A DNA stretch of 54,028 nt, the filler included, from Squatina squatina (Eukaryota), in the NCBI GenBank assembly GCA_031763465.1. It is 3 parts of 3 records of this genome, joined end to end, with 100 filler letters (N's around TTAATTAATTAA, not from the genome) between each part and the next. Parts side by side here need not be neighbours in the genome. Positions count along the whole stretch, not along the records: positions 39,737 to 54,028 come from JARFOE010000080.1; 2 more parts are not named here. One strand, 5' to 3'. Shown here one piece after another: positions 46,373 through 54,028 of this stretch. The position numbers and the translations under genes were made by a program. The stretch's first letter is position 1. Every line of letters begins with the position of its first letter. The notes under the pieces are model-generated. The model did no database searches, was not told the origin of the DNA, and saw only the letters and a program-made list of their open reading frames with translations.

Positions 46373-47284
46373 AACATGTTTGTGTCAGATTCCTCTATCC
46401 ACTATTTTAATGGAGATGTTAACTTGGTTATTTTTTGTTCCATTGAGACATGTTTAACAAATTTTACATGAGTATGAAATCTTTTCATTATGGACTTGAA
46501 GGAGTTAACATGTTAAACTATGTTACATATCATGAAGCCTTTGATGTGAAAAAATGAGATAGATATTTTCACCAGTGACAATATAGAAAATCAAATTAAT
46601 CCGAGGTTAAAAAAAAGGACTCCACAGCTATGCTGTAAAATTTATTCCAGGTTTACAGCTTCCCACATACAAGGGAAACACTTGTATCTCAAATCAGACT
46701 TGGGGTGCCTTAAACAATGTAACAAGGAAGCAAATGGAAGTGGTGCAAGGAAATTGCTATGACTCCCAAATTATACAAGCTCTGTAATTTATCAGTGAGA
46801 CAACAATGGAATAACACTGAGATAAACTTTAAAAGAGACAAATAACAATGGCTCCACGACCAGTACAACGTGCGTTGACCTTGCTACTGCAAAATGCTAT
46901 TTTAGAGCTTAGAACATAGGATTATAATAATCATTAGACTAATGAGTGTTGATAAGGATTTCCCATAGAAGCCAAACTGATAGAGAGGTCAGCAAATTGA
47001 TACTGGCGATTGGCAATGCAGTTCTGTTAAGGAGAGAAATCAATTTTTGAACAACTATTCATAGAGCANNNNNNNNNNNNNNNNNNNNNNNNNNNNNNNN
47101 NNNNNNNNNNNNNNNNNNNNNNNNNNNNNNNNNNNNNNNNNNNNNNNNNNNNNNNNNNNNNNNNNNNNGAGAGAAAGCAGGTACGGGGTACTGAGTTGCA
47201 TGATCAGCCATGATCATATTGAATGGCGGTGCAGGCTCGAAGGGCTGAATGGCCTACTCCTGCACCTAGTTTCTATGTTTTAGG

Positions 47285-48376: not shown

Positions 48377-48914
48377 GTCAGCTGTGGCTCAGTTGGTCGC
48401 ACTCTTAACTGAGTCATGAAGATTGTGAGTTCAAATCCCACTCGAGAGACCTGAGCACAAAAAAGCCAGGCTGACACTCCAGGGCAGTGCTGAGAGAATG
48501 CTGCACTGTCTTTCAGATGAGACATTAAACCAAGGCTCCATCTGTTCTCTCAGGTGGACATAAAAGATCCCATGGCACTATTTCAAAGAGCAGGGGTCTT
48601 GGCCAATATTTATCCCTCAACCAACACCGCTAAAAAACATTATCTGGTCATTATCATATTGCTGTTTGTGGCTACTGTGTTTCCTACATTACATCAATGA
48701 CTACACTTCAAAAGTACTTAAACAAAAAAAATGCTGGAAAAACTCAGCAGGTCAGGCAGCATTCATGGAGAGCTGAGTTTTGCCAGCATTTTTTGTTTAT
48801 AATTCTAGATTCCAGCATCCGCAGTATTTTATTTTTGCTTTAGAAGTACTTCATTGGCTGTAAAGTGCTTTGGGAAGACTGGAGGTTGTGAAAGACGCGA
48901 TATAAGTGCAAGTC
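48377..48914 (+). mobile_element. Nearly full-length tRNA-derived DeuSINE (SacSINE1-like), interrupted by an insertion
   Basis: Pol III A box tggctcagttgg (48385-48396), B box gagttcaaatcc (48427-48438), Deu domain gatgagacattaaacc...taaaagatcccatggcactatttc, and tail cattggctgtaaagtgctttggga...tataagtgcaagt. Confidence 0.85.
48720..48843. mobile_element. Short fold-back Penelope-like insertion inside the DeuSINE
   Basis: Inverted arms at 48720-48748 and 48772-48798. Flanked by direct repeat aagtactt (48712-48719, 48844-48851). Confidence 0.7.
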
Positions 48915-48974: not shown

Positions 48975-49314
48975 AGCACGGTCGCTGTGCTGAGCTCAGC
49001 GCGACTGTTGCCCGAAGGCGTTCGGCTATTTCCGGAGCGGCCCGAGTGGTGGGAGGGGCGCGGTGCATTGTGGGCGCGGGTGCCGGCGGTCCTTTTCGAT
49101 ATTTACCCGAGCCGCCATTTTGTCGCTGTTTCGGCGGCGTCTCCAGGCCTCGGGGAATCTGCGAGTTAGAAGCCAGCACGGGAACGTCGAATCGGTGGAC
49201 GGAGCCCTCCCTCGGTCATTGGTAGCCAGGGCGGTGTTGTCCAGGCACCGACTCTCTCTCTCGCTGTCTTCTCCAGCCCACCACCCATCCCGGGATTGGG
49301 CCGCGGCGGCGGCG
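48975..49314 (+). promoter_or_regulatory. ARGLU1: CpG-island promoter and 5' UTR of ARGLU1
   Basis: Abrupt GC/CpG-rich block in AT-rich flanks. ETS-type site atttccgg (49028-49035), GC-rich box near 49052-49063, YY1 motif gccgccatttt (49111-49121). No upstream ATG between 49121 and the strong Kozak gcggcgATGG at 49315. Confidence 0.8.
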
Positions 49315-49465
49315 ATGGGCAGGTCTCGGAGTCGTAGCTCGTCGCGCTCCAAACACGCCAAGAGCAGTAAGCACGCCAAGCGGCGGACGCGCTCCCACTC
49401 GCGGGACAAGGAGAGGCCGCGAAAACGCTCCAAGTCCCGGGAGACGAAGAGCCGCCGGCACGCGG
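49315..49465 (+). CDS. ARGLU1: ARGLU1 exon 1, visible coding part (RS/arginine-rich N-terminus); runs into an N gap
   Basis: MGRSRSRSSSRSKHAKSSKHAKRRTRSHSRDKERPRKRSKSRETKSRRHA matches the recalled vertebrate ARGLU1 N-terminus MGRSRSRSSSRSKHTKSSKHNKKRSRSRSRSRDKER. Confidence 0.93.
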
Positions 49466-49565
49466 NNNNNNNNNNNNNNNNNNNNNNNNNNNNNNNNNNN
49501 NNNNNNNNNNNNNNNNNNNNNNNNNNNNNNNNNNNNNNNNNNNNNNNNNNNNNNNNNNNNNNNNN

Positions 49566-49713
49566 GGAAGAAGAGTTGGAGAAACGTAAAGATGAGATTG
49601 AGCGTGAGGTACTCCGGCGTGTCGAGGAGGCCAAGCGCATTATGGAAAAGCAACTGTTGGAGGAGCTTGAGCGACAGCGACATGCTGAACTCGCTGCACA
49701 GAAAGCTAGAGAG
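49566..49713 (+). CDS. ARGLU1: ARGLU1 exon 2, 3' part (glutamate-rich coiled coil)
   Basis: EEELEKRKDEIEREVLRRVEEAKRIMEKQLLEELERQRHAELAAQKARE, followed by phase-0 donor GAG|gtaacg. The 5' end is hidden in gap 49466-49565. Confidence 0.95.
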
Positions 49714-52659
49714 GTAACGCTCGGTCGTTGGAAAAGCAAACAACAGTCCATGGCAAAACTTTCAGTCACAGTCAATGGTCACCACTTAATCTTCATCAGT
49801 AAATGGAATCAGAATGCATCTTTCCCTTTTCCAGCAGTTTGCAGTACCACAGCGTTGTTTTTTAAGTTGCATTTCTTTTGATGTACAAATCAACATTTCA
49901 TATTAGTTTATGATGCTGAATGTAGTATTTAATTAGGCTGCACAAAGCATTGTTCCGTGGCATTTGCTGTTTAAATTCAAGAACTTTGGGTGAAATAATA
50001 CTAATGTACCAGCATATCAATACCTGTTGAAAATCTTGTTCCACACTTAAGTTTAATTGAAACTTTTGCCATGGCTGCAGACTTTGAGTTACCTAACCAT
50101 GCAAAGAGCTTTTTTTTAAAAGGCTGTTTCAGGCTGGCAATTTGCCCTTCATTTGTGTAATCACTTTGTGTTCCATCCTGACTCCAAGTGGCTTAGTATT
50201 TCCAATGCAGATGTAGGTCAAAGTGGCTGAGCCTGCAGGACTTGCTTACGGCAAGTGGTTTATATTTGCTGTATATCCATCTTAAACTTAAATAAGATTA
50301 AAAAGGGGCAATTTTATCATGAGGTTTCTGACATCAGCCTCCATTTTATTCAAAGGATTCTTGTGGGACTGGAACTAGTCCTTTTATAACCCACCTCCAG
50401 CGTGTAGTTATAAGTACCTTTTCCTCCCAGGAGGGCTATTGACGACTGGTGAGTCCCTCCTTAATGTGAAGCTAGACATCCTGTATGTAATATGGTCACG
50501 GTACTGGAAGCTGAAAAATGTCTTTCTGTGAAATAGTGAAATGCTACTATATTGAATTTTGCCGACACTCATCACCTCTGGATTCTGAAATGAAGTACTC
50601 AGTCTTACAGAGCAGTGCAGTGCCTAGCTGTCCGTAGCAGCTTCAAAAATCTAACATTAACCCTTTGAGTATAAATAACTTAGATTNNNNNNNNNNNNNN
50701 NNNNNNNNNNNNNNNNNNNNNNNNNNNNNNNNNNNNNNNNNNNNNNNNNNNNNNNNNNNNNNNNNNNNNNNNNNNNNNNNNNNNNNNNNNNNNNNNNNNN
50801 NNNNNNNNNNNNNNNNNNNNNNNNNNNNNNNNNNNNNNNNNNNNNNNNNNNNNNNNNNNNNNNNNNNNNNNNNNNNNNNNNNNNNNNNNNNNNNNNNNNN
50901 NNNNNNNNNNNNNNNNNNNNNNNNNNNNNNNNNNNNNNNNNNNNNNNNNNNNNNNNNNNNNNNNNNNNNNNNNNNNNNNNNNNNNNNNNNNNNNNNNNNN
51001 NNNNNNNNNNNNNNNNNNNNNNNNNNNNNNNNNNNNNNNNNNNNNNNNNNNNNNNNNNNNNNNNNNNNNNNNNNNNNNNNNNNNNNNNNNNNNNNNNNNN
51101 NNNNNNNNNNNNNNNNNNNNNNNNNNNNNNNNNNNNNNNNNNNNNNNNNNNNNNNNNNNNNNNNNNNNNNNNNNNNNNNNNNNNNNNNNNNNNNNNNNNN
51201 NNNNNNNNNNNNNNNNNNNNNNNNNNNNNNNNNNNNNNNNNNNNNNNNNNNNNNNNNNNNNNNNNNNNNNNNNNNNNNNNNNNNNNNNNNNNNNNNNNNN
51301 NNNNNNNNNNNNNNNNNNNNNNNNNNNNNNNNNNNNNNNNNNNNNNNNNNNNNNNNNNNNNNNNNNNNNNNNNNNNNNNNNNNNNNNNNNNNNNNNNNNN
51401 NNNNNNNNNNNNNNNNNNNNNNNNNNNNNNNNNNNNNNNNNNNNNNNNNNNNNNNNNNNNNNNNNNNNNNNNNNNNNNNNNNNNNNNNNNNNNNNNNNNN
51501 NNNNNNNNNNNNNNNNNNNNNNNNNNNNNNNNNNNNNNNNNNNNNNNNNNNNNNNNNNNNNNNNNNNNNNNNNNNNNNNNNNNNNNNNNNNNNNNNNNNN
51601 NNNNNNNNNNNCTTGCAATTTGATTTTACACATTTTTATGGTTTGTGAAATTAACCTGCAATTTATTGCATTAATCTGTGACATTAAGTGAAGGAGCATT
51701 ACTGGTATTTTAACGATCTTTAGTTAGTCTGTTGGACTTCGACAAATTTTCATTTCAGAATGTTCTTATCTTCTCCCTTGAAGGGAGAATCGATCTATAT
51801 CTTTACATTTAATGCAGCCACAAGAGACATAAAGTGTATGAGGATAGAGTTAATTTACATGCCATTTTCATAAAATTATAAAACACCTTCAGATCGAGTT
51901 TATGTTATGAACAATGCTGTATTATAAACTGCATAATAGTTAGTGCTACCTTATTTTAATGTACTTCATTTAGTTTTATTTAAACACACACTTATTGAAG
52001 TTGTAAAGTATTCAAAGTGTATTGATGTAAGATAATGCCTATTGTATTATGATTTGCTTTCTAACTTGCTTGTATCCAGGTTATTTAAAGTTCCAGGGTT
52101 GATGAGTATCAGCTTGTAGCACATTACTAGTCATAGTAAGATTATTTTTCTTTTTCATGTCTGATAGTTTTGCTTGGCTTCATGTTAACATTGTCATCCT
52201 ACAGACAAAGGGCAAATTTCTTGGGCCATTCACAGTACTGAAAATGTAATTTTTCTGTTCTGGGCACATTGTGAAATTCTTGATTTTACGCACTTGGNNN
52301 NNNNNNNGTGTGTTTTGTTTGAATTTTGTAGTCGGGTAATCTGTAAATTTGCAAGCAATAACTGAAGTAGATTATTGTAAAATTGTTTGATCTCAAAGTC
52401 AATATAATTTATTGAGAAGTTATTCATTAGACCAGTAATAGCAAACAATGCCTTAATTTTGAGAAGTTACTAGATCACCAGTAGCTTGAATGGCACTTAT
52501 ATGATATGTTCTCAGCACAGAATAAATCATCATTTCTTCCTACTGTGAAAGATGCTCTCAGTTCCACAAGAGGATGGATTAAAGCTTGTATTTTTCACTA
52601 ACAGTAAATGTATCTTTCTTATTAATTGTTTGCCTTAGGAATGGTGATTTATATTGTTT

Positions 52660-52900
52660 CTTCTTACCGTAAACATCTGCATTCCTCAGCTCAGCCTACG
52701 TTGTGTTGTGTTTCTTGTTATTGGCTGAGCTGCTGATGCAGGTGTTGCCAAGCTAACAGTACAAATCAGTTTAAAGAGGAAGCTGGCGCATATGGCAGCC
52801 GAGGAGCACACTCTGCAGGACACTGGATGAGACAGTAAATATTCAACTTTTAATGCTGATTAATGGAGTTATAGGTAAAGAATACGTAGGTATTTGTAAT
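52660..52900 (+). promoter_or_regulatory. ARGLU1: ARGLU1 intron 2 ultraconserved-element homologue (splicing autoregulation)
   Basis: Lies in the 3' part of intron 2, about 350-580 nt before exon 3. The sequence gaggaagctggcgcatatggcagccgaggagcacactctgcaggacactgg...aaatattcaacttttaatgctgatt...ataggtaaagaatacgtagg resembles my recollection of the human ARGLU1 UCE. Boundaries are approximate. Confidence 0.75.
52819..52874 (+). other. ARGLU1: ARGLU1 poison (NMD-inducing) cassette exon, 56 nt
   Basis: Acceptor ctctgcag| and donor TAG|gtaaag. Spliced to exon 2 (phase 0) it reads GAC ACT GGA TGA, with the stop at 52828-52830. Alternative upstream AGs exist, so the 5' boundary is uncertain. Confidence 0.65.
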
Positions 52901-53243
52901 TGATGAGAGAAATCTATTCATTTTTTTTATTTTATTTTTTGTTAATGTAATTGGTAAAGTTTCTTTAGCAGTTGTATTATGTGTGGTTTAAAAAATAGTA
53001 ATATCAGCAAGCCTGACAAAAGAGGGTTTGGGTCATTGCTGTTTGAGGGCTGGGTGGGGTGATTTAAGTCCAGGAAGAATTTAACTAGGGGCAAAATAGT
53101 TCACATGAATGATTGGCAATAAAAACGGTGGCTGTCTTGGGCATAGTCAGTGGAAGGAAAGTATACTAAGGGAAGAAGCAGCTAGCCTAGATGCAATCTT
53201 AAAATTAATTCTCTCTATTAACATCTTCTTGTCTCCTATTTAG

Positions 53244-53327
53244 GAGGAAGAACGAGCTAAACGAGAAGAACTTGAGCGAATATTGGAGGAAAATAATCGA
53301 AAAATAGCAGAAGCTCAAGCTAAATTG
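53244..53327 (+). CDS. ARGLU1: ARGLU1 exon 3 (84 nt)
   Basis: Acceptor tcttcttgtctcctatttag and donor TTG|gtaagt. Translates EEERAKREELERILEENNRKIAEAQAKL, in phase with exon 2. Absent from the ORF track. Exon 4 was not found in the window. Confidence 0.95.
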
Positions 53328-54028
53328 GTAAGTATTGTTAAAATGAATCCATGATTGACTTGTTTAATGTCTTAAATATATTTATCTCTGTTTGAAACTT
53401 TTGTTTACAATAGCCCATAGGGACATTATAAGTCAAAGAGAATCTTTGCATAATGATAGAATGATAGATGCAAATATAGAAACTAAAAATGGTGGGATAA
53501 TTTTGGTTTCTATATTTTTTTTTCCCAAAGATTAGGAGTTCCAATTAAAGTTAACTCCACATACGCAAACTATATTGTCATTAACCTGGAAGCATGGGAT
53601 AGGGAAATGTACCTGTGTACTTTTGTCGCTTAGAAAAACCATGGTAGATCTTGATCACCGAAGGAATATTGCTTTGAATTTCTTGGTTTTCCTTTACAGT
53701 TACAGTGTTCTTGTGTTCTTTTCACCACCGCCACCGTTTTTAAGTTTTAGTTCCTCAGATAAGGAGACCAAAACTCGCCCCGATTGTAATAACTCCACCA
53801 TGGCCTCTGGCTAATGTCAGGTTCAAGTTTTAAAATCTGTCAGTATCAACAATTCAAACCAGTACTGTCTTGAACGGCATGTTTTCAGTCTTGTATCGTT
53901 AGATGAATTTCTGTGTGAAGCCCCTGGGTTTGATGCAACTGACTCCTTCACTGGAGGACTATCTTGACTATTGGAGCATTGAAGTTACATAAGAATTAGT
54001 AGCCGGAGTAGGCCATACTGCCCCTCGA

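Follow-up and report, generated by a model that had tools for sequence, protein, structure and literature searches.

Intron 2 of ARGLU1 in Squatina squatina carries two complementary islands. Comparison with two further loci suggests that they form a genuine pairing across a long stretch of the intron, hereafter helix A, which is deeply conserved. Coordinates count along the window, the whole 54,028-nt stretch of DNA that was analysed, and all features lie on the plus strand. The left arm is a 24-nt block at 49743-49766 (pairing bases 49744-49766), while the right arm occupies 50056-50080, of which 50056-50077 pair and 50078-50080 form a conserved unpaired CAG; the spacer at 49767-50055 is looped out. 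We consider it very probable that helix A, as predicted, forms in cells, and we put at roughly 0.5 the probability that its role lies on the splicing side, where helix A and a second long-range helix (helix B) would compact intron 2 and thereby tune, rather than drive, its detention. As a model of regulated intron detention, ARGLU1 intron 2 has in published work been dissected only for its UCE; the remaining conserved islands of the intron are the arms of the two long-range helices, and these arms offer small, exact targets for asking if RNA structure contributes to detention.

The gene had been named as ARGLU1 in the earlier note, and the Pfam ARGLU family (PF15346) bears this out with a match on exon 2 (49567-49692, E 1.2e-7) and another on exon 3, whose E of 2.4e-5 does not pass the curated cut-off. 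The coding start, with its arginine/serine-rich N-terminus, was located from the sequence and its ORF translation at 49315-49465, ending at a run of 100 N (49466-49565) that masks the remainder of exon 1 and intron 1; this run fuses exons 1 and 2 in frame, and automatic annotation could miss intron 1. The visible part of exon 2 (49566-49713) and exon 3 (53244-53327), both read from their translation, border intron 2 (49714-53243, 3530 nt including N runs of 925 and 10), the orthologue of the human intron that is described as detained in PMC5389617. A UCE-containing conserved block (52546-53067) shares 79.9% identity over 552 columns with a related locus described below (L006) and agrees by eye with the human sequence in Fig. 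S4 of PMC5389617. The 58-nt poison/decoy exon (52777-52834) has equal length and place in L006, and corresponds to the 58-nt exon of PMC6097662.

A duplex of about 20 bp between 49744-49765 and 50057-50077 had been proposed from the sequence alone, and it proved exact in every detail, comprising 20 bp with a predicted energy of -24.7 kcal/mol in the order 3 bp, a bulged U (49747), 11 bp, a C.C mismatch (49759/50063), 5 bp and a G-U pair (49765/50057). It begins, as claimed, 30 nt past the donor at intron position +31, and the loop given as about 290 nt corresponds to 291 nt separating 49765 and 50057. An additional U-A pair (49766/50056) takes the helix to -27.5 kcal/mol. The spacer, said to hold no recognisable repeat, indeed occurs only once in the window, and no copies of the arms other than the two in helix A were found within 3 mismatches in the 54 kb. 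Searching 49000-54028 with Rfam covariance models yielded 0 matches at E <= 1.

Helix A is present in both the minimum-energy fold and the centroid, and is the strongest compact long-range duplex in intron positions +19 to +498, a strength that was reached by none of 500 dinucleotide shuffles. The predicted probability of the core pairs is 0.70-0.99 in the window, 0.49-0.98 in L006 and 0.95 in a third locus (L003). Once the right arm has been transcribed, the core probability is 0.95-0.99, falling to 0.49 for a single L006 prefix and to 0.70 for a single prefix of the window. On the other hand, when both strands of the window were cut into 252 tiles of 480 nt without N, 11 of them contained a duplex at least as strong as helix A, and the 421-nt helix A region as a whole folds no better than shuffled sequences (z -0.77). 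Without conservation, helix A is thus only mildly unusual, and since equally strong duplexes occur in these tiles, the case for it is carried by conservation.

Relatives of the locus were sought in metagenome contigs with a pattern anchored in the exon end, because selection for the arms themselves had to be avoided. This gave 15 matches, of which 13 were not ARGLU1 and were dropped, leaving L006, a complete intron 2 of 2337 nt, and L003, which covers 760 nt of an intron that has diverged further. L006 contains, by eye, all seven UCE 9-mers of Pirnie's Table 1 and has mismatches to several human primers, and on these grounds it is amniote-like and non-human; that L003 comes from a ray-finned fish is a guess. 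A MAFFT global alignment put the right arm in the wrong place and was left out of the comparisons.

Both arms of helix A are identical between the window and L006 (24/24 each), leaving all 21 helix columns unchanged, while the spacer differs in length (287 nt in the window, 199 nt in L006 and 517 nt in L003) and is no more similar between loci than expected by chance, the local scores being reached by 149, 432 and 26 of 500 shuffles. In L003 the right arm is readily recognised (17/18 identical, 0/2000 shuffles matching), whereas by sequence alone the left arm is not significant (614/2000 shuffles as good). The best upstream partner of the L003 right arm, however, lies at +171 to +200 with -31.0 kcal/mol, compared to -17.0 kcal/mol for the runner-up and with none of 300 shuffles as good, and in the window, L006 and L003 alike no upstream sequence pairs better with the right arm than the left arm does (0, 1 and 0 of 300 shuffles, respectively). 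A competing helix outscores helix A in a 24-nt scan of L003. The earlier expectation that the arms would be more conserved than the spacer is hence upheld, with an unconserved spacer of variable length and the pairing predicted in all three loci.

Comparing the 21 columns between L003 and the window, 15 are unchanged, two are altered on one side to G-U, one on both sides (G-U to C-G) and two pairs are broken. Moreover, the central mismatch is changed from C.C to G.G and the bulged U is missing, although each of the three loci keeps an unpaired position in the same helix column. No two-sided changes separate the window from L006, and the overlap of left- and right-arm changes is not significant (P 0.13, three sequences only). 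That the complementarity is a coincidence between elements conserved for unrelated reasons could draw on this lack of significance and on the equally strong tiles of the window, but is extremely unlikely given that the intron has two independent pairs of conserved islands, each of them complementary, and that L003 still pairs although 8 substitutions have occurred and the position has shifted by 144 nt. The closeness of the left arm to the donor is not conserved, as its distance to exon 2 is 30 nt in the window, 29 nt in L006 and as much as 174 nt in L003 (starting at +175). Shielding of a poly(A) site by the loop of helix A finds no support, as poly(A) hexamers lie inside the loop in L003 only.

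The left arm could also be traced in protein sequences, using the peptide read through the L006 donor as query, which gave 6 clusters among 28 candidates, with 40 of 98 members listed. The arm peptide SPWQNFQ occurs in all 40 listed read-through translations, and codons 11-17, which correspond to the arm, do not vary among the 22 distinct tails, which become variable from codon 18 on; peptide conservation thus stops where the arm stops. The search was, it should be noted, seeded with the arm peptide, and there is likewise no variation at codons 7-9, which precede the arm, so that conservation reaches past the pairing bases. A coding read-through isoform as the cause was rejected, since the identical bases read SMAKLS in the window but SPWQNFQ in L006, and this difference in frame excludes coding constraint. 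One listed member carrying the left-arm peptide is the human cDNA FLJ54293. The pattern given for the human intron in the earlier note, with both arms around a different spacer, is borne out in L006, while for human itself the left arm was seen, as a peptide, but not the right arm. No partner arm was found at other loci in scans of viral contigs (2 + 1 matches) or prokaryote genomes (7 matches), where the best candidates have 5-8 mismatches when the match itself is excluded. Among 21 sequencing runs (4 organisms, 8 studies) sharing 0.28-0.48 of words, no RNA data are listed.

It could be argued that the arms are inverted protein-binding motifs in the DNA, or relics of the terminal repeats of a DNA transposon, with the pairing as a by-product. 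The arms may resemble RFX X-boxes and Tc1-type terminal repeats, the palindrome CCATGG is found in both and makes up 6 of the 11 core pairs, and the intron begins about 400 nt past the start codon, near a GC-rich promoter. Pairing of the antisense strand is furthermore as stable as that of the sense strand, or slightly more so, in the window (-30.0 vs -27.5 kcal/mol) and in L006 (-29.8 vs -26.0 kcal/mol). In L003, however, the changes suit the sense RNA, in which three G-U pairs are accommodated, the antisense helix being 12.5 kcal/mol weaker (-23.4 vs -35.9 kcal/mol) on account of these pairs, and helix B has the same sense bias. There is also no target-site duplication, the flanks differ in the window, L006 and L003, and just two arms match within 3 mismatches in the 54 kb. 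An origin at the DNA level is consequently disfavoured and we regard it as improbable.

Helix A appears, from its sequence, to belong to a known kind of element, the PCCR, and was not found described for ARGLU1. PCCRs are defined by Kalmykova et al. 2021 (PMC8052449), as far as the sections drawn on here go, as intronic pairings within the same gene and within 10,000 nt, of at least 10 nt and at most -15 kcal/mol, in conserved regions, and they are associated with splicing control. Helix A, with 20-21 bp and -24.7 to -27.5 kcal/mol, has both arms in ARGLU1 intron 2, 291 nt apart, and would fall into group III (-25 to -30). Its conservation is seen in the 24/24 blocks shared with L006 and the 17/18 right arm of L003, rather than in a human conservation track, and in terms of covariation, which is significant in a supporting subset of PCCRs, the 21 columns hold one two-sided change, two one-sided changes, two broken pairs and one mismatch swap (three sequences, P 0.13). 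It differs from the PCCRs described in PMC8052449 in its depth, with arms identical to those of an amniote-like locus, and in its setting in an autoregulated detained intron.

The RNA bridges of ENAH and RALGAPA1 presented in PMC8052449 likewise use long-range pairing to bring a splice site closer to a regulatory region. There an exon lies within 50 nt of one arm, a distance that helix A keeps in the window (30 nt) and L006 (29 nt) but not in L003 (174 nt), and an RBP site whose protein affects splicing on knock-down lies within 50 nt of the other arm; for helix A no RBP site was identified. Exon loop-out was rejected, since the poison exon at 52777-52834 lies outside both helices and no exon is enclosed by either. 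ARGLU1 is absent from the supplementary tables of PMC8052449 that were searched, including those on bridges and loop-outs; the full catalogue may list it. No description of the helix A duplex was found in the open literature searched, including the supplements of PMC10691357, nor is there anything on it in the accessible portions of PMC5737842 and PMC13561874. An Arglu1 microRNA candidate in PMC3597668 is listed there as CDS. The ARGLU1 studies of the UCE and decoy exon (PMC5389617, PMC6097662) concern the same intron, and in their accessible parts treat the UCE alone, whereas helices A and B sit 5' of it; the terms 'duplex' and 'base pair' are absent from the main text of Pirnie (PMC5389617).

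Five blocks are shared between the window and L006 at E < 1e-5, namely the UCE and four blocks which are the arms of helix A and of helix B, a second conserved long-range helix in the intron that the earlier note had missed. Helix B is a long, imperfect pairing of about 60 predicted pairs between 50503-50593 (conserved core 50507-50549, 83.7% identical to L006) and 52081-52160 (conserved core 52111-52154, 81.8% identical), which loops out the middle of intron 2. In L006 it joins +707 to +789 with +1241 to +1309, and its energies are similar in the two loci (-61.6 kcal/mol in the window, -58.4 kcal/mol in L006). Of the 30 pairs that could be mapped, 25 are the same, two changed on one side, none on both, and three are broken; 31 additional pairs fall outside the aligned cores. 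When the L006 intron was folded from +19 to its end, the helix A core reached a probability of 0.92 and helix B 0.94-0.99. In the window, helix B is enclosed by a further pairing, helix C (50131-50170 with 52187-52228, -30.9 kcal/mol), of which an 11-nt piece of the left arm is identical in L006 and pairs locally there. Helix C was rejected as a conserved element, with -10.4 kcal/mol at the tested place in L006, and is a feature of the window only.

The distance from the donor to the acceptor of the decoy exon is 3063 nt in the window and 1852 nt in L006, but with the loops of helices A and B removed it becomes 1071 and 1003 nt, respectively. The match of these effective distances is suggestive, in two species only. 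Our preferred explanation is that the complementary conserved islands would pair into the 20-bp helix A in the nascent transcript, closing at +364, when the polymerase is still far from the decoy exon (+3064) and the acceptor (+3530). Helices A and B would then compact the intron and bring the donor region closer to the UCE decoy exon, and this compaction would favour engagement of the donor with the decoy, modulating detention. A protein reading helix A would likely take part too, because the arms are frozen in sequence and not just in pairing; a plain bridge should tolerate compensatory drift, of which there is none between the window and L006, and this makes a protein reader probable.

The published minigenes constrain how much helix A could do. 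In the human whole-intron reporter, retention fell and ARGLU1 no longer had an effect once the UCE was deleted (PMC5389617), and the 58-nt decoy exon also functions when placed in another intron (PMC6097662). Helix A appears to be left untouched by every deletion and mutation in the supplement of PMC5389617. As far as the reported constructs go, it is the UCE and not helix A that drives retention in these minigenes, and since the UCE is needed even with helix A in place, helix A is limited to the part of a modulator. One of the two control-deletion primers of Pirnie can be placed on L006 at +1424-1442 (1/300 shuffled primers as good), the other matching best at +1234-1249, which is not significant (235/300). 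The published control deletion (about +1250 to +1423 in L006, with its window counterpart near 52111-52154) hence probably took the right arm of helix B, and was without effect, which suggests that a 'control' removed a conserved arm.

Helix A might instead seed further pairing that takes in the 5' splice site itself and so sequesters it. In the window, such an outward extension is predicted at 50081-50094, where 50088-50094 pair with 49712-49718 of the donor region with a probability of 0.92-0.99. The donor of L003, however, pairs with +136 to +142, upstream of the left arm, L006 is without long-range donor pairing that reaches a probability of 0.3, and a consensus exon 2 donor changed little in the human reporter and did not raise splicing (PMC5389617), making direct sequestration very unlikely.

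That helix A hides a cryptic acceptor is, in our view, also improbable. A CAG lies at or next to the end of the right arm in each locus (+367 in the window, +278 in L006 and +737 in L003) with its upstream pyrimidines inside the helix, and the identity between the window and L006 spans this unpaired CAG and then stops; PCCR arms are, moreover, reported to be enriched at inactive and cryptic sites (PMC8052449). The pyrimidine content is low, with 11, 11 and 9 of 20, where the true acceptor has 16 and 18, though the decoy acceptor is equally poor (9 and 10). Giving up a single AG would cost less than conserving 46 bases, and inspection by eye showed no conserved donor further downstream.

Alternatively, helix A could come into play once splicing has been decided, giving the stable retained RNA a structural domain or protein platform that serves nuclear retention or stability. 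The frozen sequence between the window and L006 together with the kept unpaired column would fit recognition of both shape and sequence. A paper reportedly exists on an Arglu1 stable intronic RNA (sisRNA). The retained ARGLU1 isoform is abundant, stable and nuclear, and the minigenes place splicing control in the UCE (PMC5389617). Nevertheless, helix A lies 30 nt past the donor in two of the three loci, which is suggestive of a connection with splicing, and we hold a purely later role to be rather unlikely.

A more far-reaching reading would regard intron 2 as an ancient folded RNA, where helix A with its fixed central mismatch loads the arginine-rich tail of ARGLU1, or a double-strand-binding partner, near the donor, and helix B delivers it to the UCE decoy. 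If true, the helices would be the structural half of the ARGLU1 autoregulatory switch. The arginine tract has been likened to Rev and Tat, and the RNAcompete motif of ARGLU1 is G-rich (bioRxiv 10.1101/069161); that this motif is missing from the arms of helix A counts against loading of ARGLU1, as does the requirement of the feedback for the UCE (PMC5389617), and we consider this reading improbable.

The first 21 bases of intron 2 are conserved in the window, L006 and L003, well beyond the U1-pairing site, and L006 and L003 are identical over +1 to +21 although the left arm has moved off in L003. No conserved pairing partner for these bases was found in the three loci. In L006, a 14-bp helix is predicted between +2142 to +2156 and +2313 to +2327 (probability 0.97), where it would cover some of the exon 3 acceptor's pyrimidine tract, and its upstream arm sits at the end of the conserved block. 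In the UCE of the window (52835-52910, by eye), four of the seven human donor-like 9-mers of Pirnie's Table 1 are kept, while SS2, SS5 and SS6 are altered and the GT of SS6 is gone. Finally, a near-perfect 31-bp hairpin (48718-48802, 87% complementary), which probably derives from a repeat, lies 5' of the promoter region, and inverted repeat copies at 47237-47278 and 53987-54028 flank the 5' part of ARGLU1.
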